64,000 nt of DNA, taken from positions 1-64,000 of the IMG/VR virus record IMGVR_UViG_3300044683_000172. One strand, 5' to 3'. Made by a program: the position numbers and the translations under genes. Source of the stretch: a virus. Of the stretch, positions 13,583 through 44,453 are shown one piece after another (the stretch's first letter is position 1; each line of letters opens with the position of its first letter). Under the pieces are notes generated by a model, which saw only the letters and a program-made list of their open reading frames with translations, searched no databases and was not told where the DNA came from.

Positions 13583-13914
13583 CCTTTTACTACACAGGAC
13601 GCGATCCTGTGGCAGACCTGCTCAAGATGTTCGAAGGGACGACGAAAGTTCAGGATGTCGTCGCCATCGGATGGCTGGATTTGACAGGTCGCCAGATCGG
13701 ATACGGCCGCGCTCAGCAGATTCTCAGTCTTCTGAACAAGAACATGGGCATCAACTCGTCCGGACCGATGGAAGCGACGGCAATCGACAGCCTACGGACC
13801 ATCGGGAACCAGATCGGCCACCAAAAGGCGCAGCGAATCCTGCAACTGCTGTGGGCGGACTATCTCAGAAAATGCGGCCATCCAATGGAAGGCGCGTTGA
13901 GTGGAGACCTTTGA
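13579..13914 (+). CDS. hypothetical protein with duplicated helix-hairpin-helix-like motif
   Basis: ATGA overlap. Internal duplication GRQIGYGRAQQILSLL / GNQIGHQKAQRILQLL. Confidence 0.55.
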   Translation: MTFYYTGRDPVADLLKMFEGTTKVQDVVAIGWLDLTGRQIGYGRAQQILSLLNKNMGINSSGPMEATAIDSLRTIGNQIGHQKAQRILQLLWADYLRKCGHPMEGALSGDL

Positions 13915-14016
13915 CACGTCCAACTCCTTCGCAAAATGATCATCCGCATCCTGGCAGCATCCGTTATCCTTGCTTTCTTCCTCTTTTGCTCGCCAATCTT
14001 GGCGTAAGGAGTCGTC

Positions 14017-14229
14017 TTGAAAATCTTTCTCAAGTTGGCGTTGATTCTCGCCATGGTGATGCTGATCTCCTTCATGTTGGGAGTCGTCTCGCCGATCCTT
14101 ATCAACTCCGATTCGTGGATCGGCATTGCCGTGCTGCCATTCGTGTGGTTGGCCGTAATCGGCGCCAACATCGTCGTGATCAAGCTTACTTTCTTCTCAA
14201 CCCTCCAACAACAAAAGGAGAACAAATGA
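14017..14229 (+). CDS. small integral membrane protein
   Basis: 70 aa, TTG start after a TAAGGAG SD. Two to three hydrophobic spans. Overlaps the SPFH gene start. Confidence 0.5.
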   Translation: MKIFLKLALILAMVMLISFMLGVVSPILINSDSWIGIAVLPFVWLAVIGANIVVIKLTFFSTLQQQKENK

Positions 14230-15050
14230 AACGATTCCGTTCGCTCATCCTCGCGGCCTTCATCGGCTGCATGTCGCTTCTCGCTGGCTGCGACAACGTT
14301 CCGGCAGGCCACGTCGGCATCCAGGTCTCGCGCTACGGCGGCGACCGAGGCGTCAACATCGACGTGAAACAGCCGGGCCGATATTTCAACGGCTGGAACG
14401 TGGACATGTTCCTGTTCCCCACGTTCACCCAATCGCATGTCTGGGACAAGGCCGGTTCCGATGAATCGTTCACGTTCCAAACGGTCGAAGGCCTGAGCGT
14501 CAACACCGATGTCGGGATCAGCTATACCATCGCGCCCGAGAATGCTGCGAAGGTCTTCCAGAAATATCGGCGAGGTGTCGATGAGATCACGGCCGTGTAC
14601 CTTCGTGCCATGGTCCGCGATACGCTCAACCTTGCCGGCGCCCGTATGGCAATCGAAGACGTGTACGGCAAGGGCAAAGCTGATCTTCAGAAGAGCGTGG
14701 AAGACGACGTGAAGAAGCAAGCCGCGAGCGTCGGCATCACGGTCGAATCCGTGTACTTCGTGAATGAGATGCGATTGCCGCCTTCCGTCGTGAACTCGAT
14801 CAACGCGAAGATCGCCGCGACGCAAGTTGCCCAGCAGAAGGAAAACGAGCTACGCGCAGCCGAGGCGGATGCGGCCAAGGCGATTGCCCAGGCCAAGGGC
14901 GAAGCCGAAGCGACACGAATCCGTGGCGAGGCGCTACGATCCAGCCCGCAGGCGCTCCAGCAGTTGGCAATCGAGCGCTGGGACGGCAAGTTGCCTCAGT
15001 ACATCGGCGCCGGTCAGCCGGTCCCGTTTGTCGGCGCGACGGTGAAGTGA
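14226..15050 (+). CDS. SPFH/band-7 (prohibitin-like) domain lipoprotein
   Basis: ATG at 14226 after AAAGGAG. Lipobox MKRFRSLILAAFIGCMSLLAGC. Body and coiled-coil tail fit the SPFH family. The upstream in-frame extension (13671-) is rejected. Confidence 0.8.
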   Translation: MKRFRSLILAAFIGCMSLLAGCDNVPAGHVGIQVSRYGGDRGVNIDVKQPGRYFNGWNVDMFLFPTFTQSHVWDKAGSDESFTFQTVEGLSVNTDVGISYTIAPENAAKVFQKYRRGVDEITAVYLRAMVRDTLNLAGARMAIEDVYGKGKADLQKSVEDDVKKQAASVGITVESVYFVNEMRLPPSVVNSINAKIAATQVAQQKENELRAAEADAAKAIAQAKGEAEATRIRGEALRSSPQALQQLAIERWDGKLPQYIGAGQPVPFVGATVK

Positions 15051-26872: not shown

Positions 26873-27010
26873 ATGATCAAAAGAAATGGCACATCGATCA
26901 TCTTTGCTTTCTTCGCGCTGATGTCGATCTTTGGTGGTGAAAAGGGCGCTGCGCTCGCATTCTTCTTCTTTTGCGGATTGACTTTGGATTTGAAGAGAGG
27001 GTGTGAGTGA
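26873..27010 (+). CDS. small membrane protein (45 aa)
   Basis: ATG at 26873 after GGAG. MIKRNGTSIIFAFFALMSIFGGEKGAALAFFFFCGL. Confidence 0.4.
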   Translation: MIKRNGTSIIFAFFALMSIFGGEKGAALAFFFFCGLTLDLKRGCE

Positions 27011-27852
27011 AACGAGAAGAGAATGAAATGTTGGACCAAATCAAATTCACTTCCGAGCACGAATTGCCTGTGCAATCCCTAAAGAGATCAGGGATTTACC
27101 GCATCGTATCGCCAAGCGGAAATTTCTATGTAGGAAGTGCTGTTGAAATTCGAAAACGATGGCGCAATCACAAGCGTCAACTTATCTCTGGCGTTCACCA
27201 CAACAAACCGCTGCAAGCTGCTGCCAAAAAGTACGGTTTGGAAAGCCTGCGATTCGAGATCATCGAGCACTGCGATTCTGATGTGCTCATTAACAGGGAA
27301 CAGTTTTACATCGACGCGCTGCGCCCTAAGTACAACACGTGTTTGGTGGCCGGAAGCCCACGCGGCGTGAAGCGTTCCGAAGAGACGAAGGCGAAGGTGC
27401 GCGCCGCGAATGTCGGCAGGAAGCACTCCGAAGAGACGAAGGCAAAACTGAGTGCCGCGAAGATCGGTAAGAGGCTTTCTGAGGACCACAAAGCGAAGTT
27501 GAGCGCGGCACGAATCGGCAAGATCGGCAAGAAGCATTCCGAAGAGACAAAGGCGAAGATGAGTGCGGCACACACCGGTAAGAAGTTTTCTGAGGAGCAC
27601 AAGGCGAAGATGAGCGCCGCGAATATCGGCAAGAAGCATTCCGAAGAGGCAAAGGCAAAAATGAGCGCGACACGAACCGGTAAGAGGCTTTCTGAGGAGC
27701 ACAAGGCAAATATGAGCGCCGCGCTTACCGGCAGGAAGCTTTCTGAGGAGCACAAGGCGAAGCTGCGCGCAGCGCGTCTGGCCTATTTGTCAAGGCGCAA
27801 CGGCGAGATTGGCACTTCGCTCGGATTTTCTTTCCCTGCTGATTCACTTTGA
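27007..27852 (+). CDS. free-standing GIY-YIG homing endonuclease with eight NUMOD3 repeats
   Basis: GIYRIVSPSGNFYVGSAVEIRKRWRNH (GIY-YIG), then 8 tandem SEE(T/H)KAK(L/M)SAAxxGKK units. GTG at 27007 or ATG at 27028. Confidence 0.9.
   Translation: MKREENEMLDQIKFTSEHELPVQSLKRSGIYRIVSPSGNFYVGSAVEIRKRWRNHKRQLISGVHHNKPLQAAAKKYGLESLRFEIIEHCDSDVLINREQFYIDALRPKYNTCLVAGSPRGVKRSEETKAKVRAANVGRKHSEETKAKLSAAKIGKRLSEDHKAKLSAARIGKIGKKHSEETKAKMSAAHTGKKFSEEHKAKMSAANIGKKHSEEAKAKMSATRTGKRLSEEHKANMSAALTGRKLSEEHKAKLRAARLAYLSRRNGEIGTSLGFSFPADSL
27376..27792 (+). repeat. 51-nt tandem coding repeats (NUMOD3 units)
   Basis: Eight 17-aa units (one of 20 aa) inside the endonuclease gene. These generate the spurious antisense ORFs 27088..27755. 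Confidence 0.85.
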
Positions 27853-29210: not shown

Positions 29211-29975
29211 ATGTCGCAAAACGAAGAACAAGCCAAGGCAGCACGGGACGAAGCAAAGGCCGCCAAGAAGGCCCAGCGCGAAGCCGAGAAGCAGCGCAAG
29301 GCCGAGGAAAAGGCCGCGAAGGACGCCGAGAAGCAAGCGCAGCGCGAAGCCGAACTGAAGAAGAAGGAAGAAGAGCGCGCCGCCAAGGCTGCCGAAAAGC
29401 AGGCCGAACGCGAAGCGAAGAACCGCGAAATGGCCGAGAAGCGCGAACAGGAAAAGGCCGCCAAGGCTGCTGAACGCGAAGCCGCGAAGGCCGAGGCCGC
29501 TGCGAAGAAGGAAGCCGACAAGGCCGCGAAGAAGGAAGCGCGCGAAGCCGAGAAGGCTGCTGCGAAGGCCCAGAAGGAAGCCGACAAGGAAGCGAAGAAG
29601 GCTGCCCGTCTGGCCGAAATCGAAGAGCGCAAGCAGGCTCGCAAGGCGGAAGCCAAGGCGCGTGCCGAGGCTGTGGCGGCCCGCAAGGCCGAAACCAAGG
29701 GCGACGGTCGGCGCGCGAAGGCAACGCACATCGTGTACAACGGCCATGGCCTGAGCAACCCGCAAGCAATGTCGGTGCGCGGCAATGTGCTGGCGAAGAT
29801 CAAGGAAAACTGCCCGGTCGGCGAACAAGTCAGCATCGAGCAAGTGGCCGCGTTCTGCAAGCCCGTTCTGTACGGCGCGAACGTTCGAAGCTTCCTGGCC
29901 AAACTCGAAGAGATGGGCCATCTGGATTTCGTGACCGTGTCCAGCGAGCCGGCTGCGGAACCTGAAGCCGCGTGA
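29211..29975 (+). CDS. Lys/Ala/Glu-rich coiled-coil protein with globular C-terminal domain
   Basis: About 160 aa of AKKAQREAEKQRKAEEKAAK-type low complexity, then about 90 aa of ordinary sequence (HIVYNGHGLSNPQAMSVRGNVLAKIKENCP...). Confidence 0.7.
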   Translation: MSQNEEQAKAARDEAKAAKKAQREAEKQRKAEEKAAKDAEKQAQREAELKKKEEERAAKAAEKQAEREAKNREMAEKREQEKAAKAAEREAAKAEAAAKKEADKAAKKEAREAEKAAAKAQKEADKEAKKAARLAEIEERKQARKAEAKARAEAVAARKAETKGDGRRAKATHIVYNGHGLSNPQAMSVRGNVLAKIKENCPVGEQVSIEQVAAFCKPVLYGANVRSFLAKLEEMGHLDFVTVSSEPAAEPEAA

Positions 29976-30034
29976 CGCTCTCTAAGTAACTCCCCCACTC
30001 ACTGGTTACACCCACGGCCAGTGATTTTGTGCAG

Positions 30035-30123: not shown

Positions 30124-31107
30124 ATGGCTAAATACAATCGCATTATCGGCGCAGGCTTGGCTGGTCTGATCGCGGCGTGTCACTTCAAGGATGCCGAGAT
30201 TTACGAGGCCGGTCCACGGCAAGACAACCACAAGGCTCTTTTGCGATTTCGCGACGAGTCGGTGTCCAATCTGACTGGCATCCCGTTCAAACCGGTCACC
30301 GTCGATAAGGCGATCTACTTGGATGGCTGTTCGCCGGGATCGCGTGAGCGCGGCCTGTATGGCGCCTGTACCATCCAGATGGCCAATTGGTATGCCACGA
30401 AGACGACCGGACACGTTGCCGGCCGCAGCATCTGGAACCTGGAGCGGGCGACTCGCTATATCGCGCCGGAAGATTTCCATCAACGTCTCGTGGACAAGGC
30501 TGGATTCCTGGTCAACTACGAAAAGCCGATTGATACGATCCACTCGTGGGACAAACATCATTACAACACCATCAGCACCGCACCTTTGCCGGTCATGTTG
30601 AAGGCAGCTGGAATCGAGTTGCCGCATCTTCAAACGGAAAAGGCGCCGATCAAGGTTCAGCGTTTCCGCATTCCGAAGTGCGATGTTTACCAAACGATTT
30701 ATTTCCCTGAGATGGAATTGCGAGTGTTCCGAGCTTCCATAACCGGAGATATGTTGATCATCGAATCGGTGATGGAAAAGCACAATTCGGTGTTCGATTG
30801 GTGGTACATGCCAGATGCCGAATTGGATGTGGTTCTCACCGCGTTTGGTCTGAACCATCTACTGATGGACATCGAGCACCTGGAAGATGTTGAGCAGAAG
30901 TATGGCAAGATCGTGCCGATATCTTCCGAGCAGCGTCACGCGGTTCTCTATGAGCTCACCGAGCGATTCGGCGTCTATTCGCTGGGGCGATTCGCGACGT
31001 GGCGGAACATCCTTCTGGACGATGTGGTGAAGGACATCGCCGTGATCGACCGACTCATCAAGGCGTCCGACTATGGGCGCCTCCACATGACTTCGGAGAT
31101 GGTATGA
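30124..31107 (+). CDS. FAD/NAD(P)-binding Rossmann protein, UDP-galactopyranose mutase / amine-oxidase-like
   Basis: N-terminal IIGAGLAGLIAACHF dinucleotide-binding motif, ISTAPLPVM, and C-terminal SLGRFATWRNILLDDVV resembling the GRxxxYxYxxMD end of Glf-type flavoenzymes. Confidence 0.65.
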   Translation: MAKYNRIIGAGLAGLIAACHFKDAEIYEAGPRQDNHKALLRFRDESVSNLTGIPFKPVTVDKAIYLDGCSPGSRERGLYGACTIQMANWYATKTTGHVAGRSIWNLERATRYIAPEDFHQRLVDKAGFLVNYEKPIDTIHSWDKHHYNTISTAPLPVMLKAAGIELPHLQTEKAPIKVQRFRIPKCDVYQTIYFPEMELRVFRASITGDMLIIESVMEKHNSVFDWWYMPDAELDVVLTAFGLNHLLMDIEHLEDVEQKYGKIVPISSEQRHAVLYELTERFGVYSLGRFATWRNILLDDVVKDIAVIDRLIKASDYGRLHMTSEMV

Positions 31108-31463
31108 TCAGCAAGCTTGATAAGGCTCAAATGGCTGAATACGGCAACGCCAGCGTCGTGTGCACCGCTCCTGGTCCGTTGAACGGAAAGATGGCGTTGG
31201 CGCGGCCGCATCCGACTCAGCCGGACATGTTCTTGGTCCAGTTCAACGATCTGAATTCGCGTTGGCCTAACACTACGTTTGATGATTTCAACTACGAGTG
31301 GCAGCCGCGCAACTGCCTTGGCTTCGGGTGGACGGTCTTCCAATCCAAATTCTTCAAGTCGATGACGAAAGAGGATTTGGACAAGCGCGTGAAATTCCGA
31401 TGCTTGCCGTCTGGGTTGCCCGTTGGGCGACTCATATCTGTGACCACCAAATTCCCAGATTGA
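31104..31463 (+). CDS. hypothetical protein
   Basis: ATGA overlap with the upstream stop. 119 aa. Confidence 0.55.
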   Translation: MISKLDKAQMAEYGNASVVCTAPGPLNGKMALARPHPTQPDMFLVQFNDLNSRWPNTTFDDFNYEWQPRNCLGFGWTVFQSKFFKSMTKEDLDKRVKFRCLPSGLPVGRLISVTTKFPD

Positions 31464-31510
31464 CGTGAACATCAGCGATGAGGCATAATAACCTCATCGC
31501 TTTTGCGTTT
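31460..31510 (+). promoter_or_regulatory. promoter TTGACG-N18-CATAAT nested in a terminator hairpin
   Basis: AGCGATGAGG (31474-31483) pairs with CCTCATCGCT (31492-31501), then TTTTGCGTTTC. The 8-nt loop is CATAATAA, i.e. the -10 box. Confidence 0.5.
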
Positions 31511-31529
31511 CTCAGAAAGGAATAGAACT

Positions 31530-31715
31530 ATGAAGGCCGTACTTGCTTCCATCCGACAGTTGGCTTCCATCGCCGTTCAAGAGGCCGTCGCTCGCATCAA
31601 GGATCGTTCTGTCAGCGAGCCGCCGACGTTCTACTGCCAGGAGTTGGATTCGTTTACCGGAGATGACGGCCTTCAGTATGTTGTTGAAATCACTGTACGT
31701 CTGAAGGAGGATTGA
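31530..31715 (+). CDS. hypothetical protein (61 aa)
   Basis: ATG after a TCAGAAAGGAATAGAACT leader. Confidence 0.45.
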   Translation: MKAVLASIRQLASIAVQEAVARIKDRSVSEPPTFYCQELDSFTGDDGLQYVVEITVRLKED

Positions 31716-31889
31716 ATGTACAAGGTTCTGGTCACGACGATTTATATCGGTTGCGGCTCGGGAGCAGCCGTCCATACGTCTACTATCGAATTCGATAGCC
31801 ACGCGCTCGCTACCGCTGCCGTTCGTATCATCAACGAAAACCACTGCGACAATAACTACAGCCAGAAAGCCCTGGCCCTCTTCCAATGA
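31716..31889 (+). CDS. hypothetical protein (57 aa)
   Basis: GAAGGAGG SD. MYKVLVTTIYIGCGSGAAVHTS... Stop overlaps the thyX start (ATGA). Confidence 0.4.
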   Translation: MYKVLVTTIYIGCGSGAAVHTSTIEFDSHALATAAVRIINENHCDNNYSQKALALFQ

Positions 31890-32716
31890 AAGTCACCCTC
31901 ATATCCCACACCCAAAACGCTCTGGAGCTTCTGGTTGATACGAAGCACACGCGTATGCGCGGCAAGACGGCCGATCAGATGACTGAAGCCGAACGATATG
32001 AGCACTTCCAGTACATGCTTGATACGATCCGCTCGCCGTTCGAGTTCGTTGATTACATCTTCCAGATCGAAGGCGTGTCCAAGAACTTCACGCATCAACT
32101 GGTTCGCACACGTACGGGCGCGTATCAGCAGGAAACCAGTCGCGCGCTGGAAATATCGGCCTTCGATACGATCAAGCCGAAGGCATTCGATGGAAACGGA
32201 CAGATAGATACGCCCTTGAATGAAGTTTGGGCGGACGCAATCGCCGATGCAGACGCCAACTACAAACAGTTGATTGCAATGGGCGCCGACCTTCAAGACG
32301 CCCGCGCCATCCTTCCGTCCAACATGGCCACCAAGATCATGGCCAAGTTTAATCTCCGGACGCTTTCTGATATGGCCAAGAACCGCCTGTGCGCACGTAC
32401 ACAAGGTGAGTATCAGGAAGTCTTTCGGGCAATGCGCGCGGCGGTGTTGGAAGTTCATCCCTGGTCCGACCCGCTCTTGCAGGTGGCGTGCGTTGCGACA
32501 GGGCAATGCGCCTTTCCGCGTTGGGGATCGAAGGTTATCGAGACGACGGCAAACGTACTGGGCCGCGATACCGTCATCGGTCAGAAGTATCAGTGTCCGC
32601 ACTATCGGCCTTGGATGGACCTGTCCGCTCAGAAGGAAGCATTGCGCGTATCCTTCTGGTCCAAGGAAGAAATCGCGCAAGCCAACCCCGTCGCCAAGAA
32701 TGGCGTTTCCATGTAA
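31886..32716 (+). CDS. thyX: ThyX-family (flavin-dependent thymidylate synthase-like) protein with variant signature motif
   Basis: FQIEGVSKNFTHQLVRTRTGAYQQETSRAL aligns with the ThyX RHRxxxxxxxS motif but reads RTR. Downstream ARAILPSNMATKIMAKFNLRTL...RLCARTQGEYQ fits the family. Confidence 0.8.
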   Translation: MKVTLISHTQNALELLVDTKHTRMRGKTADQMTEAERYEHFQYMLDTIRSPFEFVDYIFQIEGVSKNFTHQLVRTRTGAYQQETSRALEISAFDTIKPKAFDGNGQIDTPLNEVWADAIADADANYKQLIAMGADLQDARAILPSNMATKIMAKFNLRTLSDMAKNRLCARTQGEYQEVFRAMRAAVLEVHPWSDPLLQVACVATGQCAFPRWGSKVIETTANVLGRDTVIGQKYQCPHYRPWMDLSAQKEALRVSFWSKEEIAQANPVAKNGVSM

Positions 32717-32724
32717 GGAACTTC

Positions 32725-33858
32725 ATGAACATCATCAACGAAACTCCCAAGCGACCGCTCTACATCTTCGACCTGGATGGCACCGTTTCATCGGACGGCT
32801 GGCGCAAGCATCTTCTGCCGAAACACCCGGACGGCCAGCCGCGTGCGGAGAATGATGGAACGATTCCCCACGATGCGTACGACAAGTACCATTCCCTGCT
32901 GGGCGGCGATATGCCCATGTACGCTGGATTCAAGTGCCTGAAGCGTGCCATTGCTTTGGGCGCCTTCATCGTTTTCTTCACGGCACGGCCGACGTCTTAT
33001 CACGAAAAGACTGTTGAATGGCTGGAAAAGTTTCTCGGCAACTTCGATTACTGGCTTTACATGCGTGACGATGATGATCTTCGCGGCTCCGTTGAGCTCA
33101 AGTTGGATATGTTGAGCCGTCTCAAAGAAACGCTGAAGTTGAGCGCCCATTGGCACTTGGAAACCATCGCCATCTACGATGACCGAGCCGATGTTCTTGG
33201 AGCAATCGGCAGCACCGGCATCAACGCCTTCCGTATCACCGAGAACAATGAAGTTGTGATGGTCTCGTATCACAACGGACATAAATTCCCGAAGGAGATG
33301 TCTGCTCTTCACGAACAGATCAACGCCGGAGCCGCCGGGAATTGCGACCCCAACAAAAAACAAGACGCGAACGTCAAGGCCATCGAAGAAACGAAAACCA
33401 TTGGCGATATCTCGATCAAGACGCGAACCGAATTCGTCGCGCCTGCCAATCACGTCAGCGGATTCGTTGATAAACCCGAATCCCTGGCCAAAGCCATTGG
33501 AAATGCATGGGAGGCTGTGATGGGCCTTACCGGGAAGCCCGTTCGAGAAACGAGCGCGGCCGACCTGCTGGACGAAATGGCCGCGACGTTCCGAGAGCGC
33601 AACAAGGTGTACGGCAACAACGAGAAGCTGGTTGGCGACGTGATGTCCGCGATGTTTCCGAATGGCGTGACGCTCCGGACGGCAGCAGACTTTCGCATGT
33701 GGCACCTGTTTGAATTGAAGGTGGTGAAGTTGACACGTTTCGCTGTCTCCGGCCTGCAGCACCAAGACTCCATCCACGACGACGGCGTTTATAGCGCCAT
33801 GTGTGAACGTCTGGTTGGTACCCACAACATTCAAATCAACCAGGACGAATCGGAGTGA
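32725..33858 (+). CDS. fusion of a HAD-superfamily phosphatase (T4 Pnk-phosphatase-like) and a C-terminal all-alpha NTP-pyrophosphohydrolase-like domain
   Basis: LYIFDLDGTV (motif I), FFTARP (II), IYDDRADV (IV). The C-terminal FRERNKVYGNNE...WHLFELKVVKLTRF...HQDSIHDDGVYSAM resembles DUF1599/DUF6378-type domains. Confidence 0.7.
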   Translation: MNIINETPKRPLYIFDLDGTVSSDGWRKHLLPKHPDGQPRAENDGTIPHDAYDKYHSLLGGDMPMYAGFKCLKRAIALGAFIVFFTARPTSYHEKTVEWLEKFLGNFDYWLYMRDDDDLRGSVELKLDMLSRLKETLKLSAHWHLETIAIYDDRADVLGAIGSTGINAFRITENNEVVMVSYHNGHKFPKEMSALHEQINAGAAGNCDPNKKQDANVKAIEETKTIGDISIKTRTEFVAPANHVSGFVDKPESLAKAIGNAWEAVMGLTGKPVRETSAADLLDEMAATFRERNKVYGNNEKLVGDVMSAMFPNGVTLRTAADFRMWHLFELKVVKLTRFAVSGLQHQDSIHDDGVYSAMCERLVGTHNIQINQDESE

Positions 33859-33860
33859 CC

Positions 33861-34268
33861 ATGGAAGACAAATTCTCTGAAGACAATCCGAAATACGGAA
33901 TGCCACCGTTGAATGATTATGACCGCCGAAAGGAGTTGCAGGAAGCCGATTTGTTGCCTGCTTACAGTCACTTCTCCCAGCTGAATCCGGCCGAGCAAGA
34001 GCGGCTGACGCTTTTGTACGAAGAGGCCAGCGAAGTCATCAAGGAAGTGGCCAAGATTCAGCGACACGGCTTTGAGTCGCGCAATCCGGATAATCCGATG
34101 GCGAACACCAACCGGCAGAATTTGGCCATCGAAATCGGTCAACTTCAGTTTATCATCAACGTTCTGAAAGAGCGCGGCGATGTGGACGGAAAATTGGTTG
34201 ATCACGTCGCCAAGGAGCGCCATCTTTCCATCAACCGTTACCTCCACCACAACAAATTTCGAGCATGA
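33861..34268 (+). CDS. MazG-like NTP pyrophosphohydrolase
   Basis: LTLLYEEASEVIKEVAKIQRHG...NLAIEIGQLQFIINVL fits the EExxE/ExxD all-alpha NTP-PPase pattern. GTG at 33855 is an alternative start. Confidence 0.7.
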   Translation: MEDKFSEDNPKYGMPPLNDYDRRKELQEADLLPAYSHFSQLNPAEQERLTLLYEEASEVIKEVAKIQRHGFESRNPDNPMANTNRQNLAIEIGQLQFIINVLKERGDVDGKLVDHVAKERHLSINRYLHHNKFRA

Positions 34269-34984
34269 ACTCCTTTGTGAACAAAACGTCTGACAACCGA
34301 CTCGCCGGCAAATCCTTCATCGTCACCGGCGCTGGCGCTGGTCTGGGCGCGGCGATCTGCCGACGCCTGAATGAATCCGGAGCGCGTACGTACGGCATCG
34401 ACATCAAGTGGGGAAGCGATGTGCGTGACCCGGCCATCTGGGATGCTTACAAGGGATGGGATATCGACGGCCTGATCAACTGCGCTGGCATCAACGCCAA
34501 CGACTGGTTTGAGGATGTTAGCCCTTTCCAGTTGCAGAACGTTATGGAAGTGAACGCATTCTCGATGGTGTACGCCGTGCAAGGTTTGCTGCCGCAGCTG
34601 CACAAATCGTCGGGCGTCGTCGTCAACATCGTATCCAACGCCGCTAGTATGCCGATGACCTCGTCTCTGGCCTACAACATGTCCAAGGCGGCAGCGCTGA
34701 TGGCCACGAAGCAGATGGCGCACGAGCTTACGAAGAAATACGGGATCACCGTCTTCAGCGTCTCGCCGAACAAGCTGAAAGGCACCGAGATGTCCAAGCA
34801 GATCGAGGCCGACGTGCAACGCGTTCGCGGCTGGACGCCCGAATTCGCCGCCGACTATCAGGCCAAGTCGCTTATGCACGGGCTGGAGACGCCGCCGGAA
34901 ATGGTCGCTGAGGTCATCGTCAATGCTCTAGAAACCGGCGCGTGGAAGTATATGAGCGGGACTGACATTCCGGTCGGCAAGTAA
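34265..34984 (+). CDS. short-chain dehydrogenase/reductase (SDR)
   Basis: TGAGAGLGAAI cofactor motif, NCAG, and catalytic YNMSKAA. Confidence 0.9.
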   Translation: MNSFVNKTSDNRLAGKSFIVTGAGAGLGAAICRRLNESGARTYGIDIKWGSDVRDPAIWDAYKGWDIDGLINCAGINANDWFEDVSPFQLQNVMEVNAFSMVYAVQGLLPQLHKSSGVVVNIVSNAASMPMTSSLAYNMSKAAALMATKQMAHELTKKYGITVFSVSPNKLKGTEMSKQIEADVQRVRGWTPEFAADYQAKSLMHGLETPPEMVAEVIVNALETGAWKYMSGTDIPVGK

Positions 34985-35022
34985 GCGCGTATCATCAACT
35001 TTCTCAACTTCAAGGATTCACC

Positions 35023-35691
35023 ATGACCCAACTGAAATTCCGCATCGAACAAATCGCCCTGGCTCCTGCCAACACCGGCCGCGCCATCAAGCTTCTTTCC
35101 GACCTCGGCCTCACCGACTGGTTCAAGGACAACGTGGTGGCCAGCGGGCATGTGTACGGCGTTCCTGGCCAGAACAGCGCCCTTTTGCAGTTCAACTACC
35201 AAGCCGGCAACGGCAACGATCCGGCCGGCAAGCCGTTGGAGTTGGAAGTGCTGAAGTACGTGGACGGCAACAACTGGCTGAACTATCGCCCGGACAACAC
35301 CACGTCGCATCTGGGCATGCACGTCACGAGCGAAGAACTGTACGCCTTCCAGAAGTATTTCGAGCGCGAAGGCATCCCCGTTGCCCAGGCCGTTTGGACG
35401 GATGCGCACACAAATCCCGCCATCGCCGGCAAGCGTTTCTACAACTACGTCATCTTCGATACACACCAGATCATCGGCGTCGATCTGAAGTTCATCGTGC
35501 GCCATGACGTCACGCAAGTGGAGCAGAAAGAATCGCGCTTGCATCGCAATGGCGAAATCACGAGCAATGTCAAGGTCGAAATCGATACGAAGGACATCGA
35601 CCGTGCCGTCAAGCGCGCTCTGTCCGCCAAGAAGACTGTCGCCAAGCCTGCCAAGCCGGTCGGGCGCAAAACCGCTGTGCGCTCGAAATAA
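35023..35691 (+). CDS. VOC (glyoxalase/dioxygenase-fold)-like protein with basic tail
   Basis: IEQIALAPANTGRAIKLLSDLG..., LELEVLKY, SHLGMHVTSEEL are typical paired beta-alpha-beta-beta-beta module strings. Lys-rich C-terminus. Confidence 0.5.
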   Translation: MTQLKFRIEQIALAPANTGRAIKLLSDLGLTDWFKDNVVASGHVYGVPGQNSALLQFNYQAGNGNDPAGKPLELEVLKYVDGNNWLNYRPDNTTSHLGMHVTSEELYAFQKYFEREGIPVAQAVWTDAHTNPAIAGKRFYNYVIFDTHQIIGVDLKFIVRHDVTQVEQKESRLHRNGEITSNVKVEIDTKDIDRAVKRALSAKKTVAKPAKPVGRKTAVRSK

Positions 35692-35778: not shown

Positions 35779-36342
35779 ATGATATTCGCAGTAGCGGATA
35801 CGGAAACTACTGGCCTGCCATTCCATCGCGCGGCGCGACTCGATCAGCAGCCGCGCATCATCGAAATCGCAGGCGTCATAACGGACGGTGTTGATGTTCT
35901 GGACAAGTTCGAGTGCATCGTCAACCCCGGCGTGGCAATCGAACAGATCATCACCGACATCACCGGGTTGACGAATGCCGATTTGGCCGATAAGCCGGCA
36001 TTCAAGGACGTCATTCCGCAGGTTGCCGAGTTCTTCGGTAAAGCAGACGCCTGCATCTTCCACAACGCATCATTCGACCGATCCATGTTTGCCTATGATC
36101 TCCAACGCATCGGCTTGGAGTTGGACGCGATCAACTGGCCTGAGCTCACCATCTGTACCGTTGAAGAGACGATGCCGCGATATGGGCGCCGCATGAAGCT
36201 GGAAGAGCTTTACAACCTTCACTGCGGCGAATATGTCCAGAAGCACAGAGCATTGGACGACGTTTTGCTGCTTCATCAGGTCTGCATCAGGACAGGCGTT
36301 TACAGCGCATACAAGCAAACAGAAGAGATGAGGGCGCTATGA
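35779..36342 (+). CDS. dnaQ: DnaQ-like (DEDDh) 3'-5' exonuclease
   Basis: ExoI FAVADTETTGL, ExoII HNASFDRSMF, ExoIII HRALDDVLLL. Confidence 0.9.
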   Translation: MIFAVADTETTGLPFHRAARLDQQPRIIEIAGVITDGVDVLDKFECIVNPGVAIEQIITDITGLTNADLADKPAFKDVIPQVAEFFGKADACIFHNASFDRSMFAYDLQRIGLELDAINWPELTICTVEETMPRYGRRMKLEELYNLHCGEYVQKHRALDDVLLLHQVCIRTGVYSAYKQTEEMRAL

Positions 36343-36500
36343 ATTGTGACATCTGCAAAAAGCCGTTGAGCGAAGACCCGAAGAAGGACAATTACAACTG
36401 CGGCGGTACATGCATGCGCTGCATGGCGTCGTTTGATGATCCTGAGTGCAAGAAGGCCATCGCTGAAATCGACGGTATTGAGTTGGAGGATGAGCAATGA
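36339..36500 (+). CDS. small zinc-ribbon protein (53 aa) coupled between dnaQ and dnaE
   Basis: MNCDICKKPL...CGGTCMRCMASFDDPEC. ATGA overlaps at both ends. Confidence 0.45.
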   Translation: MNCDICKKPLSEDPKKDNYNCGGTCMRCMASFDDPECKKAIAEIDGIELEDEQ

Positions 36501-39349
36501 ATCTACCACAACTGCGAGTCCGCACCGGCTATTCTTTCCGCAATGCCTATGGGAGAATGGAAGAAGTCTTCGCGCGACTGAAAGAAATCGAATCTCCGTC
36601 AGCCGCTATCGTTGACTGGGGCACATGGGGGCATGTACGTTTCGAGAAGGAAGCGAAAAAGACCGGCATTAAGCCTATGTTTGGGATGGAAGTTCCGATC
36701 ATCCAAACCATGGAAGACGGCGAGAAATCTAAGTTCAAACCTGTCGCATGGATGCTGGCTGCCGATACGCGCGCCTTCTATCGCGGAACGACGAAGGCCT
36801 GGGCCGAACGAGGGTTGTCGCCGGCCGAGTTCGCAGCGCTGCCCGGTGTCGTACGCTTCGCGGGCGCAGCATCCCGGGTCTTGACCCCAGACCAGTACGA
36901 TTTCATCGACGTCAACCCGGCATCGATTTCCGAAGCGGCACGAGGCGTGTGGATCGCGCGCGAAACTGGCAAGCCTCTGGTCATCACCTGTTACAACGAC
37001 ATGCCGAAGCCGGATCACATGGACTTCGCGTATGCGTGGGAAGTTCGGGATTCGGTCGGCCATCGCTTCTTGGACGGCATCGATGAGCTTTGGAAGCGAC
37101 TTCAGCGCGTGATGTCGTGGAGCGAATTCCAAGCCGCAATCGACAACACCGTGGAAATTGCCGACAAGCTTGCTGGCAAGGAACTGCCCAAGGCACCTCT
37201 GATTCACCTGGAAGGCGATCTGGTTGCCCTGATCCGAGAAGGGCAGCAATCGCGCTTGCAGCGAGGTCACATCGCGGAATGGACCCAGGAATATGAGGAT
37301 CGTGTTCAAGAAGAGATCAAGCAAATTCAGCTGAAGAACTTCGACAGCTACTTTCTTGTTGTTGCTGATCTCGTCCGATTTGCAAAACAGCACATGCTGG
37401 TCGGACCCGCTCGCGGCTCGGCGGCAGGTTCATTGGTCTGCTATCTTCTCGGCATCACAGAAGTCGATCCTATTCCCCACGACCTTCTGTTCCAGCGGTT
37501 CATCGACATCAGCCGCGCTGACCTTCCGGATATCGACATCGACTTTGCCGACAACAAGCGTCATATGGTGTTCACGTACTTGCAAGAAAAGTACGGAACG
37601 CAGAACGTCGCCAAGCTTGGGAATATCAACACGCTGAAGGCCAACTCTGTGATGGCGCAAGTCGGCAAGCGTTTCGGCATTTCTTTCGGCGAAACTTCCC
37701 AAGTCAAAAATGCGCTCATTGAATACTCTTCTGGCGATGCTCGATACGGAAAAGGTTTGGAAGATACCTTCTCCACCACCGGACCCGGACAGGAATTCAC
37801 CCAGAAGCATCCGGACGCCGCGCGATGCATGGGCGACCTCGAAATCCATCCAAGTCATACAGGCGTACACGCTGCGGGCATCCTCGTCTGTAATGATCCA
37901 ATCAGCGATTACTGCACGGTCACCGAAGAAGGCGTGGCACAAATCGATAAGCCGGATTCTGAGTATCTGAACCTGCTGAAGATCGACGCGCTTGGCTTGC
38001 GTACTCTGGGCATCATCGATGATACGGGCGTCGTCACGGCCGAAGAACTCTACAGTCTGCGACTTGACGATCCCGCCGTGTTCGAAATCCTCAATGAGGA
38101 CAAGGTGAGTGGCATCTTCCAGTTTGAAGGGGATGCCGTTCGATCTGTGACGCGCTCTGTTAACGTGGATCGGTTCTCGAAAATCGACAACTTGACAGCT
38201 CTGGCGCGGCCCGGCCCGCTCGCGTCCGGTATGGCCCAAAAGTACATCGCCCGCGCCAACGGATCGGAGCCTGTTACGTACGATGTTCCGCAGCTGGAGA
38301 AGTACCTAAAGGACACGTACGGCGTTTTCCTTTACCAAGAGCAGATCATGTCCGTGGTGAAGGAAATTGGCTTGTTCGACTGGGTGAAGACTTCTGCTGT
38401 CCGAAAGGCCATGTCTGGTCGAAAGGGCGAAGAATACTTCAACCAGATGGGTGCCGACTTTGTTGCAGGCGCGACTTCGCAAGGAGTGCCGGAAGATCAG
38501 GCCAAGAAGATTTGGAACGAGATGGTGACGTTCGGCTCTTGGGGCTTCAATAAATCGCACTCGGTCTCATATGCCGTCGTGACGTATTGGACTTGCTGGC
38601 TCAAGCGTTATCATCCACTGGAGTTTGCCGCAGCCTGTCTGCGCGCGGCGAAAGACGATGATCAAGTAATCGCAATTCTTCGAGAATTGGCCAAGGAAGG
38701 AATCCATTACACGCCAATCGATCCGTCGTTCAGCGATATGAATTGGAAGGTGGCCGATGGCCGACTGATCGGCGGCATCATGAATGCCAAGGGTTTTGGA
38801 CCGGCCAAGGCGATGAAGTACATCCAGGATCGCGAGAAATGGAAGAGGCTTCGCGACTTGGGGCCGCTGACGAAGAAGGATACGGCGCTGTACCTGAAGC
38901 ACGTCGAATCGCTCGCCAAGGCTGAGGTCCAATACTCCGACTTGAATGAAGCGCACACCAAGTGGGGCCACTTCTATCGGAACCCGGAACTGGCCGGCGT
39001 TACGTCCGGCAACCCTATCGTCAACATGAAGTCGGTGAAGGACAAAGACGATGGTCTGATCATCGCCAAGCTGACCAAGAAGGTTTTGGCCGACGAGAAC
39101 GAAGCCATTCGGATCAAAAAGCGCGGCGGGAAAGTCATGACCGGCCAGACGCAGTTCATCGACTTGATGATGGTGGACGATTCCGCCGACTCGCCGATGC
39201 GTTTCCGTATCCGCCCTAACAAGTTCCTTGACCTAGGCAAGCCCATCGCGGAAACCGCTCCGATCAATTCTTGGTTTCTGATCAAAGCATGGAAGATCGA
39301 AGGAATTGATATGTTCATCGTTAAGAACATAAAGAGGATCGACCAATGA
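36497..39349 (+). CDS. dnaE: DNA polymerase III alpha subunit (DnaE-type replicative polymerase)
   Basis: 950 aa. GPARGSAAGSLVCYLLGITEVDP, PDIDIDF, and fingers/beta-binding region FNKSHSVSYA. The N-terminal PHP motif is degenerate (LRVRTGYS). Confidence 0.95.
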   Translation: MNLPQLRVRTGYSFRNAYGRMEEVFARLKEIESPSAAIVDWGTWGHVRFEKEAKKTGIKPMFGMEVPIIQTMEDGEKSKFKPVAWMLAADTRAFYRGTTKAWAERGLSPAEFAALPGVVRFAGAASRVLTPDQYDFIDVNPASISEAARGVWIARETGKPLVITCYNDMPKPDHMDFAYAWEVRDSVGHRFLDGIDELWKRLQRVMSWSEFQAAIDNTVEIADKLAGKELPKAPLIHLEGDLVALIREGQQSRLQRGHIAEWTQEYEDRVQEEIKQIQLKNFDSYFLVVADLVRFAKQHMLVGPARGSAAGSLVCYLLGITEVDPIPHDLLFQRFIDISRADLPDIDIDFADNKRHMVFTYLQEKYGTQNVAKLGNINTLKANSVMAQVGKRFGISFGETSQVKNALIEYSSGDARYGKGLEDTFSTTGPGQEFTQKHPDAARCMGDLEIHPSHTGVHAAGILVCNDPISDYCTVTEEGVAQIDKPDSEYLNLLKIDALGLRTLGIIDDTGVVTAEELYSLRLDDPAVFEILNEDKVSGIFQFEGDAVRSVTRSVNVDRFSKIDNLTALARPGPLASGMAQKYIARANGSEPVTYDVPQLEKYLKDTYGVFLYQEQIMSVVKEIGLFDWVKTSAVRKAMSGRKGEEYFNQMGADFVAGATSQGVPEDQAKKIWNEMVTFGSWGFNKSHSVSYAVVTYWTCWLKRYHPLEFAAACLRAAKDDDQVIAILRELAKEGIHYTPIDPSFSDMNWKVADGRLIGGIMNAKGFGPAKAMKYIQDREKWKRLRDLGPLTKKDTALYLKHVESLAKAEVQYSDLNEAHTKWGHFYRNPELAGVTSGNPIVNMKSVKDKDDGLIIAKLTKKVLADENEAIRIKKRGGKVMTGQTQFIDLMMVDDSADSPMRFRIRPNKFLDLGKPIAETAPINSWFLIKAWKIEGIDMFIVKNIKRIDQ

Positions 39350-41405: not shown

Positions 41406-41738
41406 ATGGCACGAGTATTCATCCCACAGGTAGTCACGCGATTCAATCCCGTCTCGAAGACAAAAGAGCCGGTTTTTGACTTCAGCGCCGCCGCGCAGCA
41501 TGGGACTCTGATCAACGTGCTGAGTGAAGAGGACAATCCCCTGTTTCTGGCCCATCTTGCTCCAAAGATTCGAAAGGCTTTGGATGATTTCAAGGAAGAG
41601 GATCGGTTGCTGGCCGTTGGCGACCCCTCTGTGATCGCCATTTGCAGCGGCATCATCCTGCGGCGACAACGAGTCCTCAACATGCTTAAGTGGGATCGCA
41701 AGCTGCAAGTTTACATCAATGTGGAGGTAAGACCATGA
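41406..41738 (+). CDS. hypothetical protein
   Basis: 110-aa ORF, GAAAGGAA SD. Confidence 0.55.
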   Translation: MARVFIPQVVTRFNPVSKTKEPVFDFSAAAQHGTLINVLSEEDNPLFLAHLAPKIRKALDDFKEEDRLLAVGDPSVIAICSGIILRRQRVLNMLKWDRKLQVYINVEVRP

Positions 41739-42376
41739 GTGACGAACCGATTCAACAGAATCTTGTTACAGACGGATTTGACGATCCGGAAAGCAACGGC
41801 AGCATTCCGACATCCGCCTACTTCGAAGACACAGGTCCGGTCAGCAATGAAGAGCCTGCGACTTTGGAGGCTCTGAGCTTGATGGCCCGGAAGAGTGGCG
41901 AGTTGGAGGCCGAAATCATGGCGCTGGAAGTTCAACTGGCCGAGAAGACGGACCAACTGAACATCATCAAGCGCAAGAGCATGCCCGACATCATGGAGCG
42001 TCTGGGCTTTGAATCGTTCAAGATGGAAGATGGCCGAACCATTGAGATCGAGAAGAAGATCAATGCATCCATCAGCGCCGAGAACAAGCCGCTGGCATTC
42101 GCTTGGCTCCGCGAGCACAACTGTGACGGCATCATCAAGATGAAGGTCGGCACCGACTTCGGCAAGGGCGAAAGCGACTTGGCTGAAAAGGCAATCAAAG
42201 CGCTGCGCGAAGCCGGTTTCGATCCGAACGTTGACGAGAACGTTCACCCGGCCACGCTCAAGGCATTCGTCCGCGAGCAACTGGAAGAAGGCACCGATAT
42301 TCCAATCGATGTCTTCGGCATCTTCGAATTCAAAGAGGCAAAAATCAAATTGCCTCGGACATCGAAGCGCAAGTAA
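41735..42376 (+). CDS. hypothetical protein (coiled-coil; possibly Gp157-like)
   Basis: ATGA overlap. Acidic N-terminus, coiled coil, AFAWLREHNCDGIIKMKV segment. Weak family resemblance only. Confidence 0.55.
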   Translation: MSDEPIQQNLVTDGFDDPESNGSIPTSAYFEDTGPVSNEEPATLEALSLMARKSGELEAEIMALEVQLAEKTDQLNIIKRKSMPDIMERLGFESFKMEDGRTIEIEKKINASISAENKPLAFAWLREHNCDGIIKMKVGTDFGKGESDLAEKAIKALREAGFDPNVDENVHPATLKAFVREQLEEGTDIPIDVFGIFEFKEAKIKLPRTSKRK

Positions 42377-42432: not shown

Positions 42433-43287
42433 ATGGCAAAGAAAGAAGAGAATGCAGTGGTGGAAGTGAAGGCTGGCGCGCTGGCCACGGTTCCGGAATT
42501 CATGGACGTCGCCGACTTCGGCGCGGGCTTCGAAGGCACCGACAAGGACTCCTATGCGATCCCGTTCCTTCAAGTCCTGCAGAAGATGTCGCCGCTGGTC
42601 GATGAAGACAGTCCCAAGTACATCGAAGGCGCCAAGGCCGGCATGTTCTTCAATACCGTCACTGGTCGCCTGTACGATGGCAAAAACGGCCTGACCGTCA
42701 TCCCGTGCGCCTACAAGCGTTCCTTCATCCAGTGGGGTGCACGCGAGGCTGGCGGCGGCTTCAAGGGCGAGTTCACGCCTGAGCACGCCGAGCAGATGGT
42801 GGCTGAAGGCAAGTGGCTGCAGATCGAGAACCGCATCTACGTTCCGGACGAAAACGGCAAGGTCGATCCGAAGAAGCAGGACTACGTTGCCGACACGCGA
42901 TCCCACTTCATCGTCGGCATCGATCCCGAAACCAACGAAACGTTCCGCGCGATCCTCTCGCTGGCTTCCTCGCAGATCAAGGCCAGCCGCAACCTGATGA
43001 CGTCGCTGAGCCAGAAGAAAGTCACGCTGCCGGACGGCTCGAAGCGCACGCCGCCGACGTTTGCCAACCTGGTCCAACTGACGACCGTCGGCCAGACGAA
43101 CGATCAGGGCTCCTGGTCCGGCGTCGTCTTCAAACTGGACGGCACGATCACTGACAAGGCGCTGTTCGAAGAGGCCAAGGACTTCCACAAGTCCATCGCG
43201 GCCGGCGAAGTGAAGGTGGACTACAGCAAGGCGGCAGACGATGGCACCAGCGCCAGCGACAAGCCGCAAGAAGCCGAAGGGTTCTAA
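42433..43287 (+). CDS. hypothetical protein; possible ssDNA-binding/recombination protein
   Basis: 284 aa. Acidic C-terminal tail ending EAEGF, like SSB-type interaction tails. Lies in the replication/recombination neighbourhood. Function not established. Confidence 0.5.
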   Translation: MAKKEENAVVEVKAGALATVPEFMDVADFGAGFEGTDKDSYAIPFLQVLQKMSPLVDEDSPKYIEGAKAGMFFNTVTGRLYDGKNGLTVIPCAYKRSFIQWGAREAGGGFKGEFTPEHAEQMVAEGKWLQIENRIYVPDENGKVDPKKQDYVADTRSHFIVGIDPETNETFRAILSLASSQIKASRNLMTSLSQKKVTLPDGSKRTPPTFANLVQLTTVGQTNDQGSWSGVVFKLDGTITDKALFEEAKDFHKSIAAGEVKVDYSKAADDGTSASDKPQEAEGF

Positions 43288-43889: not shown

Positions 43890-44453
43890 ATGACTGAATA
43901 CAACATTTCCATCCAAGACCTTTTCGCTGCCGTCGTTGCCTGGGCGAAAGCGCGCAATCTCATCGCAGGCAGCGATCCGAAGACGCAAACGCTCAAGACC
44001 GTCAGCGAATTCGCCGAGATCGGCGCTGGCATCTTCAAAGAAGACATCGACGAAATCAAGGACGGATTGGGCGACACCCTTGTCACCGTGATCATCGTCG
44101 CGGCGCAGCTTGGCAAGGACGCATATGATGCATTCGAAACGAAAATCAGCCTGGAAAGCGAGCTTGGCGAAGATTTCGAAATGTACAACTACGAACTGGC
44201 AAGCGCAACGCTGGGGCTGATGGCCGACAACGTCATCAAGGGGCAAGTCAACGACTACATGATCAATCTCGCCGTGTTCATCCAGCTGCTTGCCGATATC
44301 GCCGAATCCCGCAGTTGCAGCCTTCACGACTGTCTGGCCGCTGCCTACGATGAGATCAAGGACCGCAAGGGCGTGATGTACCACGGCGCCTTCATCAAGG
44401 ATTCGGACCCGCGCTATGCAGGCGCCTGCGCCGAACTTGGCCTGGAGGCTTAA
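43890..44453 (+). CDS. MazG-like NTP pyrophosphohydrolase
   Basis: TQTLKTVSEFAEIGAGIFKEDIDEIKDGLGDTLVTVIIVAAQLG and C-terminal AYDEIKDRKG fit the MazG/dimeric dUTPase-like pattern. Confidence 0.7.
   Translation: MTEYNISIQDLFAAVVAWAKARNLIAGSDPKTQTLKTVSEFAEIGAGIFKEDIDEIKDGLGDTLVTVIIVAAQLGKDAYDAFETKISLESELGEDFEMYNYELASATLGLMADNVIKGQVNDYMINLAVFIQLLADIAESRSCSLHDCLAAAYDEIKDRKGVMYHGAFIKDSDPRYAGACAELGLEA

Follow-up and report, generated by a model that had tools for sequence, protein, structure and literature searches.

A conserved flavoprotein-ThyX-HAD gene block beside the DnaQ/DnaE replicase of an uncultivated PB1-like phage: candidate genes for sugar-derived thymidine hypermodification at TG sites

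Phages of the genus Pbunavirus (PB1-like phages) are among those most used in Pseudomonas aeruginosa therapy, and it was found only recently that their DNA is hypermodified. Using mass spectrometry after liquid chromatography (LC-MS), a preprint by Yee et al. (2025; PMC12191111; bioRxiv 2025.03.31.646159) described nucleosides of 362 Da in phage F8 and 390 Da in phage 14-1 that are sugar-derived and replace approximately one quarter of the thymidines, at TG sites (T followed by G). The same study reported restriction digests of F8 and 14-1 DNA, which is cut by EcoRI, HindIII, XbaI, DraI and BsaI, and stated that Pbunaviruses have no homologues of known modification genes; it named no biosynthetic genes (PMC12191111), and no later paper naming them was found in the literature searched. 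Here we describe a block of nine consecutive plus-strand open reading frames (ORFs) at positions 30124-35691 of the window, the 64,000 nt stretch (positions 1 to 64,000) of IMG/VR virus record IMGVR_UViG_3300044683_000172, and show that it belongs to an uncultivated relative of the PB1-like phages (Pbunavirus, Carpasina, Pluto and Kyle). We propose, tentatively and with slightly less than even confidence, that the flavoprotein-ThyX-HAD core of this block makes the sugar-derived hypermodification of thymidine at TG, and that an SDR-VOC gene pair modifies the side chain in lineages like that of the window.

Partial, post-replicative and context-dependent replacement of thymidine that protects DNA from restriction is likewise found in the 5-hydroxymethyldeoxyuridine (5-hmdU)-derived pathways of phages phiW-14, SP10, ViI, M6 and PaMx11 (NAR 2021 gkab781; NAR 2024 gkae784). 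In those pathways the side chain is an amine or amino acid, whereas in the relatives of the window it is a sugar or polyol. PaMx11 gp47, a GR2-family flavoprotein that acts on flipped-out modified T in double-stranded DNA (PMC11472151), provides a precedent for a GR2 flavoprotein acting on such a substrate, although it has no sequence similarity to the flavoprotein of the window. When the window ORFs were scanned with Pfam, PHROGs and NCBIfam, we identified no ThyA-type deoxyuridine monophosphate (dUMP) hydroxymethylase (only a ThyX-family protein), 5-HMUDK kinase, amino-acid/polyamine:DNA transferase (aGPT-Pplase type), pyridoxal phosphate enzyme or radical-SAM enzyme, in a scan that could miss small or very divergent proteins. 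A sequence-only reading of the window had reported no kinase, glycosyltransferase or aminotransferase, which holds for the ORFs scanned and agrees with what has been reported for Pbunaviruses (PMC12191111). Base J (glucosyl-hydroxymethyluracil) and 5-glyceryl-methylcytosine of Chlamydomonas also carry a carbohydrate-derived group at a pyrimidine C5 in DNA, in the latter case joined to the methyl carbon by a C-C bond. Both of these modifications require Fe(II) dioxygenases of the TET/JBP type, with a glycosyltransferase needed in addition for base J, and neither domain was detected in the block; the VOC protein has a metal-dependent fold different from that of TET/JBP and is absent from Pbunaviruses.

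The sequence-only reading had described the block as a co-oriented cluster of nucleotide-tailoring genes upstream of DnaQ and DnaE, and all nine ORFs were recovered, mostly overlapping and directly upstream of these two genes. The first encodes a 327 aa FAD-type flavoprotein with a GxGxxG motif and a predicted GR2 fold (30124-31107; phrog_4828, function unknown, E-value: 9e-107; no Pfam family). It is followed by three orphan ORFs: o119, of 119 aa (31104-31463), an ORF of 70 aa from a TTG start or 61 aa from the ATG at 31530 (31503-31715), and o57, of 57 aa (31716-31889). None of these small ORFs has a match in Pfam, PHROGs or NCBIfam or a homologue in 85 related loci. Next are genes for a divergent ThyX-family flavoprotein (31886-32716; Pfam Thy1, E-value: 3.5e-31), a HAD phosphatase of the PNKP-phosphatase type with a helical C-terminal domain (32725-33858; phrog_4889, E-value: 5e-55), a putative MazG-like all-alpha nucleoside triphosphate (NTP) pyrophosphohydrolase of 137 aa (33855-34268), a classical SDR (34265-34984; adh_short, E-value: 1.5e-30) and a putative VOC (glyoxalase/dioxygenase-fold) protein (35023-35691). 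The gene identities given earlier were thus essentially right, with one reservation concerning the HAD protein that is discussed below. Beyond the block and on the same strand lie a DnaQ-type 3'-5' exonuclease (35779-36342; RNase_T, E-value: 2.4e-21; phrog_192, E-value: 2e-40), a Cys-rich ORF of 53 aa (36339-36500) and a DnaE-type replicative polymerase (36497-39349; 61% identity to F8/14-1 gp55), annotated in relatives as DNA polymerase III alpha.

A megablast search of the window against phage records returned no match, and relatives appeared only in the distant blastn mode, all of them at 68-71% identity. These are Luteibacter phage Pluto, Xanthomonas phages Carpasina, FoX6 and XcP1, Xylella phage MATE2, Burkholderia phage WTB and Pantoea phage Kyle, together with approximately 290 Pseudomonas Pbunavirus (PB1-like) records. 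Their common annotated order is Dda helicase, TolA-like protein, flavoprotein, small ORFs, ThyX, HAD, [SDR, VOC], DnaQ, DnaE and helicases, and the order flavoprotein-ThyX-HAD-[SDR-VOC]-DnaQ-DnaE recurs in approximately 90 related loci. Among 80 IMG/VR loci collected via the flavoprotein, flavoprotein-ThyX-HAD-DnaQ-DnaE was present in every sufficiently long locus, the sole exception being the short, rearranged locus L023; similarly, apart from L023, ThyX adjoins the flavoprotein wherever the downstream sequence is long enough. Six contigs from metagenome-assembled genomes (MAGs) all show the start of the same order, and three that are long enough, plus a fourth that adds SDR-VOC, reach DnaE, including a member whose flavoprotein is only 30% identical. 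Because the same order recurs in every related locus that is long enough, the arrangement is not due to chance. DnaQ/DnaE is the replicase of the phage, with which the module has an ancient link, and by comparison of sequences the block appears to be the local version of an ancient, fixed module that travels with DnaQ/DnaE in PB1-like phages and their uncultivated relatives. In seven of the loci (L007, L008, L011, L012, L016, L017 and L020) there is an additional HAD-like ORF between the flavoprotein and ThyX, where the window has its three orphan ORFs.

F8 and 14-1 belong to the same supergroup as the window and share its Dda-TolA-like-flavoprotein-ThyX-HAD-DnaQ-DnaE order. The block is therefore already present in long-known Pbunavirus genomes, in which its genes are annotated as thymidylate synthase, polynucleotide kinase and hypothetical proteins. 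Identities between the window and F8/14-1 are 41% for the flavoprotein, 61% for ThyX, 25% for HAD, 60% for the exonuclease and 61% for the polymerase. In F8 and 14-1 the orthologues of the three core genes are gp65 (flavoprotein), gp59 (ThyX) and gp57 (HAD). The window has SDR, VOC and extra MazG-like genes that are absent from Pbunaviruses; the small ORFs are unrelated and the HAD proteins very divergent. The thymidines followed by G make up 26.7% of T in F8, 27.1% in 14-1 and 29.3% in the window; as the first two values approximate the reported quarter, modification of essentially every TG would give that figure. Since approximately three quarters of T are canonical and the modified fraction equals the TG fraction, the modification is expected to be sequence-specific and made on DNA rather than by pool replacement. 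It would be added to DNA or to a precursor pyrimidine, and not by way of purging the dTTP pool. We infer that the phage of the window is modified in the same way as F8 and 14-1. The block genes are candidates for this modification by elimination and by association, as Pbunaviruses have few enzyme-like genes apart from those of the block, MazG, the ligase, the primases and the helicases.

If TG-containing sites are protected by modification, then selection against them as restriction sites should relax. We therefore compared observed and expected counts (O/E) of the 64 six-base palindromes, 16 of which contain TG/CA, with expectations from a fourth-order Markov model. The controls were 77 random IMG/VR loci plus phiKMV, with 15 loci that share proteins with the window left out. 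A first control set, consisting of phiKMV relatives, was dropped because its seven genomes were near-identical, and was replaced by the random loci. In the window, the O/E is 1.005 for TG palindromes (304 observed, 302.5 expected) and 0.725 for TG-free palindromes (655 observed, 903 expected; Mann-Whitney p = 0.007), and outside of 27-46 kb the values are 1.04 with TG and 0.72 without. Across 69 clade loci the O/E is 0.90 with TG and 0.66 without, with a positive difference in 65 of the 69, as compared to 0.65 with TG and 0.69 without in the 77 control loci (clade versus controls, p = 6.5e-12; clade versus GC-matched controls, p = 5.6e-7). F8 and 14-1 show the same TG-specific release from palindrome avoidance as the clade of the window.

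This pattern is particular to TG. In both the window and the clade, TG/CA has the largest positive effect among the ten dinucleotide classes, with no such effect in the controls, and it persists after stratification by CG content. In a multivariable regression the TG coefficient is +0.41 in the clade (t = 3.0) and 0.00 in the controls. The signal is equal in loci with and without SDR-VOC, and so it tracks the core genes. No signal was seen for four-base palindromes, a test that lacks power. Based on these results, the clade shows a strong TG-specific release from restriction-site avoidance, and the window itself shows a suggestive one. Together with the LC-MS data for F8/14-1 and the shared gene order, the TG footprint gives indirect support to the proposal of the sequence-only reading that the module goes with non-canonical DNA, with these particular genes as candidates for making the modification. 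The most depleted palindromes of the window all lack TG: CGATCG (2 observed, 42.8 expected), CCGCGG (1 observed, 29.3 expected) and AGATCT (0 observed, 11.3 expected). These are the PvuI, SacII and BglII sites, respectively, and hint at the restriction systems of the host.

The flavoprotein is predicted to have a GR2 fold that is closest to UDP-galactopyranose mutase (UGM). Its AlphaFold model, built with 33 homologues as input, has a pLDDT of 87 and resembles solved UGM structures at 15% identity; the earlier label of a Glf/amine-oxidase-like protein is therefore appropriate at the level of fold. At the level of sequence there is no Pfam GLF or Amino_oxidase match, the sole Pfam match being to NAD_binding_8 (E-value: 0.096), and in sequence and profile searches of the PDB matches were confined to the N-terminal GxGxxG segment. 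In comparison with UGM and other GR2 enzymes such as protoporphyrinogen and amine oxidases, the protein is small (327 aa); its fold is that of GR2 substrate-oxidising and mutase enzymes, without a separate NAD(P)H domain. An identical protein is encoded on a 68.9 kb JGI metagenome contig. A profile search of a representative library placed it in a large, self-contained family (1146 clusters at 50% identity) for which no link to cellular enzymes was apparent. This family is restricted to phage-like contigs: a search of 185,579 species genomes identified only the six MAG contigs described above. Assignment of the flavoprotein as a TrmFO/MnmG-type enzyme or as a homologue of PaMx11 gp47 was also considered, and both were rejected because there was no sequence match or top structural match.

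The ThyX protein matches PF02511 over residues 4-193 with a score of 108.9 bits (cutoff: 24.8), and shares with characterized ThyX proteins the Thy1 fold, the dUMP-site arginines and a phage nucleotide-metabolism context. It differs from them in its signature, which reads RTRTGAYQQETSR (R-T-R..A....T.R) in place of RHRxxSxxxxSxR, in scoring 82.7 bits against the NCBIfam equivalog TIGR02170 (below the cutoff of 87.9) and in having a C-terminal extension of approximately 80 aa. In a pairwise alignment, His53 and Tyr91 of Thermotoga maritima ThyX are replaced, while the dUMP-site arginines of that enzyme (R78, R80, R90, R147 and R174) all align with arginines in the window protein. The altered signature residues lie near the flavin. 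Both features extend to the clade, in which the signature is R[T/S/N]R in 81 of 81 proteins and RHR in none, and R74, R76, R86, R140 and R167 are 100% conserved. The C-terminal extension (residues ~195-276) falls outside of the Thy1 domain, and its cysteines C202, C208 and C237 are conserved in only 34 of the 81 clade members.

The start codon of the HAD gene is the ATG at 32725, which follows an AGGA ribosome-binding site. Its DLDGT motif contains two aspartates (D20 and D22) that are invariant in the homologue alignment. Similarity to HAD_PNKP (PF25109; E-value: 5e-5) amounts to 23.9 bits in the window, slightly short of the cutoff of 27.6, and to 44.4 bits in the F8 orthologue, and this family is listed for most HAD homologues in precomputed tables. 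No 5'-kinase (P-loop) domain is present; the C-terminal part is instead a conserved domain of approximately 100 aa, reached by a variable linker and predicted by AlphaFold2 to be a four-helix bundle (pLDDT 89). A Foldseek search of viral models with this domain gave weak matches to DUF6378 (E-value: 4e-3) and to "Nucleotide modification associated domain 1" (Nmad1-like, E-value: 0.07), such that the NTP-pyrophosphohydrolase-like fusion named by the sequence-only reading has weak backing. HAD is the most divergent conserved gene of the block (25% identity to F8, versus 41-61% for its neighbours). The adjacent MazG-like protein matches phrog_4856 (E-value: 1.3e-14) and contains an EExxE motif (EEASE), with no Pfam or PDB sequence match and a weak hhalign match to the NTP pyrophosphohydrolase of phage Kyle. 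At this position the gene is rare in the clade, being found in the window and L041 only. A second MazG-like pyrophosphatase (43890-44453, plus strand; phrog_1992, E-value: 1e-52; Pfam MazG, E-value: 4e-4) lies outside of the block and belongs to the same nucleotide-enzyme set; it is the orthologue of Pbunavirus gp049 and is 39-42% identical to the F8/14-1 proteins.

The SDR and VOC genes behave as one accessory unit that is gained and lost together. Among 65 loci that contain both HAD and DnaQ, both genes are present in 41 and neither in 23, with a single locus containing one alone. Cultured relatives with the pair are Pluto, Carpasina, FoX6, XcP1, Kyle and WTB. From its translation, the SDR has the TGxxxGxG cofactor motif (as TGAGAGLG), the NAG motif (as NCAG) and the Ser-Tyr-Lys catalytic motif (with YNMSK), and among NCBIfam models it scores best with glucose 1-dehydrogenase and polyol/diol dehydrogenases, in each case short of the cutoff. 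For the putative VOC protein of the window itself, there was no Pfam match and a profile search against PDB sequences gave none, while 11 of 31 homologues match Glyoxalase_4 (PF13669; best E-value: 6.7e-6). The tail of this protein (residues ~165-222; protein pI 9.4) is basic and Lys/Ala/Pro-rich and is absent from most homologues; judging from its composition, it could be a nucleic-acid-binding appendage. For the flavoprotein, VOC, HAD and MazG-like proteins and for two homologue profiles, comparison with PDB sequences provided nothing useful beyond the matches given above.

As F8 and 14-1 carry different modifications, their proteins were compared. Most of the 31 proteins compared are 92-99% identical. 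In the block, HAD is 81% identical, with a length difference of 16 residues, and the small ORFs o58, o60 and o61 are 78-82% identical. HAD is hypervariable within the otherwise very uniform Pbunavirus genus (~290 records). The allele of F8 (gp057, L004 9772-10836) is at least 95% identical in six records and 60-90% identical in 277. A block gene that would cleanly separate F8 from 14-1 was sought; HAD and these three small ORFs diverge most inside the block, but ORF70, which is outside of it, diverges more, and the comparison is no more than suggestive. ORF70 is located at L004 17894-19090 and L005 19997-21301, and the identities of its neighbours range from >91% (o71) to >99% (o69, primase). 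No homologue of ORF70 was found among the window ORFs compared.

The masses of the two nucleosides permit a more specific proposal. By our arithmetic, 362.33 Da corresponds to deoxyuridine (dU) plus a pentose minus H2O plus 2H, which equals thymidine (dT) plus a tetrose, and 390.34 Da corresponds to dU plus a hexose minus H2O, which equals dT plus C5H8O5. Both ThyX and UGM use a flavin N5 iminium adduct, formed with a methylene in the former and with sugar C1 in the latter. This shared chemistry makes the two flavoenzymes of the core plausible makers of a C-C bond. A C-C bond to the sugar would thus be formed by flavin chemistry: the 362 Da product would arise by a ThyX-like reductive alkylation of C5 in which a sugar carbon replaces the methylene, and the 390 Da product from the same intermediate when it is trapped by an internal hydroxyl rather than by hydride. 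The HAD phosphatase, which is of a type active on the ends of polynucleotides, would strip off a phosphate that a sugar-phosphate donor or activated intermediate had introduced, the SDR and its VOC partner would alter the side chain in lineages like that of the window, and the MazG-like enzymes would only police the nucleotide pool. This would constitute a kinase-independent and previously undescribed route to a C-linked sugar or polyol on C5 of thymine or uracil at TG, in which flavin N5-iminium chemistry makes the C-C bond, a phosphatase finishes the product and SDR-VOC gives a further derivative. In this detailed form we consider the proposal unlikely, more so than the assignment of the modification to the core genes.

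The alternative with most in its favour is that the block serves ordinary nucleotide supply and repair, with ThyX making thymidine monophosphate (dTMP) for a lytic phage that replicates fast, HAD acting as a polynucleotide 3'-phosphatase or nucleotidase, MazG cleaning the dNTP pool or degrading alarmones, the flavoprotein, SDR and VOC being unrelated auxiliary metabolic genes and the modification being made by other, anonymous genes. We give this an appreciable probability, while doubting that it is correct. It would account for the HAD_PNKP similarity and for the annotation of ThyX, MazG and PNKP-like phosphatases in many other phages (Klebsiella, Escherichia and marine), and many conserved genes of unknown function do exist elsewhere in the genome. 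It is harder to reconcile with a flavoprotein family that is confined to this phage group and sits beside ThyX, which would be odd for a generic metabolic gene, with the loss of the RHR histidine in all clade ThyX proteins and the sub-equivalog score of the window copy, with a HAD protein that has no kinase domain and carries a conserved extra domain resembling "nucleotide modification associated" phage proteins, and with the fact that Pbunaviruses are chemically modified yet offer few other enzyme candidates. Several observations nevertheless count against assigning the modification to the core genes, and some of them favour supply and repair directly. ThyX keeps its fold and all of its dUMP-site arginines and so may simply make dTMP. 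Identity between F8 and 14-1 is as high as 97% for the flavoprotein and 94% for ThyX, and the most divergent gene between the two phages, ORF70 (phrog_5310, function unknown; 57%), is outside of the block. The "sugar alcohol" derivative of Pbunaviruses is made in the absence of an SDR, no domain for sequence-specific DNA binding or base flipping was identified, and the masses are compatible with several structures. The synteny is clade-wide, and cannot separate functional coupling from shared ancestry, and the phage of the window is known from a metagenome alone. For the window taken singly, approximately 10% of short control loci reach its TG value, and the multivariable fit, which has no power for the window alone, is not significant (t = 0.6).

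Two further explanations carry much less weight. According to the sequence-only reading, the block would replace a base throughout the genome: a ThyX variant makes a modified pyrimidine nucleotide, HAD and MazG purge the canonical one, the dedicated polymerase DnaE incorporates the product genome-wide and the redox enzymes add further chemistry. With its thymidylate-synthase homologue, (d)NTPases, phosphatase and phage-encoded polymerase, the gene content does resemble that of known replacement systems, and the second MazG-like gene is nearby. This scheme is not supported by comparison with the relatives, as in F8 and 14-1 approximately three quarters of T remain canonical and the replaced quarter is specific to TG, which a polymerase fed from a purged pool would not give and which speaks against the need for a dedicated polymerase; furthermore, no nucleotide kinase for a new deoxynucleoside monophosphate was found among the ORFs scanned, and the footprint is specific to the TG class instead of being spread over all T-containing classes. 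We regard it as very improbable. Scarcely more probable is that the flavoprotein is a redox helper of the divergent ThyX, for example by returning its flavin to the reduced state or by protecting it now that the histidine is lost, while SDR-VOC detoxify or reshape host metabolites, with no part in DNA modification. The adjacency of the flavoprotein and ThyX genes, the alteration of the ThyX signature at residues near the flavin and the dispensability of SDR-VOC in one third of the loci would all fit such a role. A GR2 substrate-oxidising/mutase fold with no separate NAD(P)H domain would not be expected of a redox helper, terminator-like hairpins suggest that the flavoprotein is transcribed apart from ThyX, and both the TG footprint and the chemistry of the relatives would be left unexplained.

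The proposed assignment of thymidine hypermodification to the flavoprotein-ThyX-HAD core narrows the search for the Pbunavirus modification genes, which have gone unreported, to a candidate list of three core genes and one accessory pair. As the most variable candidate, HAD is, together with o58, o60 and o61, a possible determinant of which sugar is attached. In the literature searched, we found no description of a link between this block and hypermodification, of the UGM-like fold, of the clade-wide loss of the ThyX histidine, of the SDR-VOC pair or of the TG footprint. If the detailed flavin-based route is true, a very large uncultivated clade (>1100 flavoprotein clusters at 50% identity) carries such DNA. 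Confirmation would establish the enzymatic C-C transfer of glycosyl or polyol groups to DNA as a new class of reaction, would account for the sensitivity of a large phage clade to END-type nucleases and for its resistance to many restriction enzymes, and would make new DNA-labelling enzymes available. From sequence alone, a selective lack of TG-palindrome avoidance can also flag such modification in uncultivated phages.

Many of the block genes had been described as coupled by ATGA overlaps. Four-base start/stop overlaps were indeed observed at 31104 (ATGA), 31886 (ATGA), 33855 (GTGA) and 34265 (ATGA), coupling the flavoprotein to o119, o57 to ThyX, HAD to the MazG-like gene and the MazG-like gene to the SDR, respectively, while HAD does not overlap the ThyX stop codon. 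Downstream of the block, ATGA overlaps at 36339 and 36497 couple DnaQ to the 53 aa ORF and this ORF to DnaE. Two terminator-like hairpins on the plus strand bracket the flavoprotein gene and o119. The hairpin at 29999-30024 has a 9 bp stem followed by a T run and falls exactly in the intergenic gap before the flavoprotein gene, and that at 31474-31501 has a 10 bp stem with six GC pairs and a T-rich tail, again in an intergenic gap, and is overlapped by a plus-strand sigma-70-like promoter match at 31460-31489 (score 10/12). Given these hairpins, the flavoprotein may be transcribed separately from ThyX; taken as a whole, the promoter and terminator scan showed no enrichment over shuffled sequences.

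Several other genes, all on the plus strand, were also noted. Immediately upstream, the block adjoins a gene for a TolA-like protein (29211-29975) that contains a long Lys/Glu/Ala-rich charged repeat and has a conserved counterpart in Pbunavirus ORF66. Positions 27007-27852, located between the primase-side operon and the gene for the Dda helicase, encode a homing endonuclease of the GIY-YIG type with five NUMOD3 repeats. Between the helicases and the second MazG-like gene are two conserved genes of unknown function: one encoding a Pam3 gp33-like protein (DUF7307; 41690-42376) that is the orthologue of Pbunavirus ORF52, and one encoding a Pam3 gp34-like protein (42433-43287) that is the orthologue of ORF51. 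Further upstream, positions 13671-15050 encode a 459 aa protein with an SPFH/Band 7 domain that is labelled as a lipoprotein in PHROGs.

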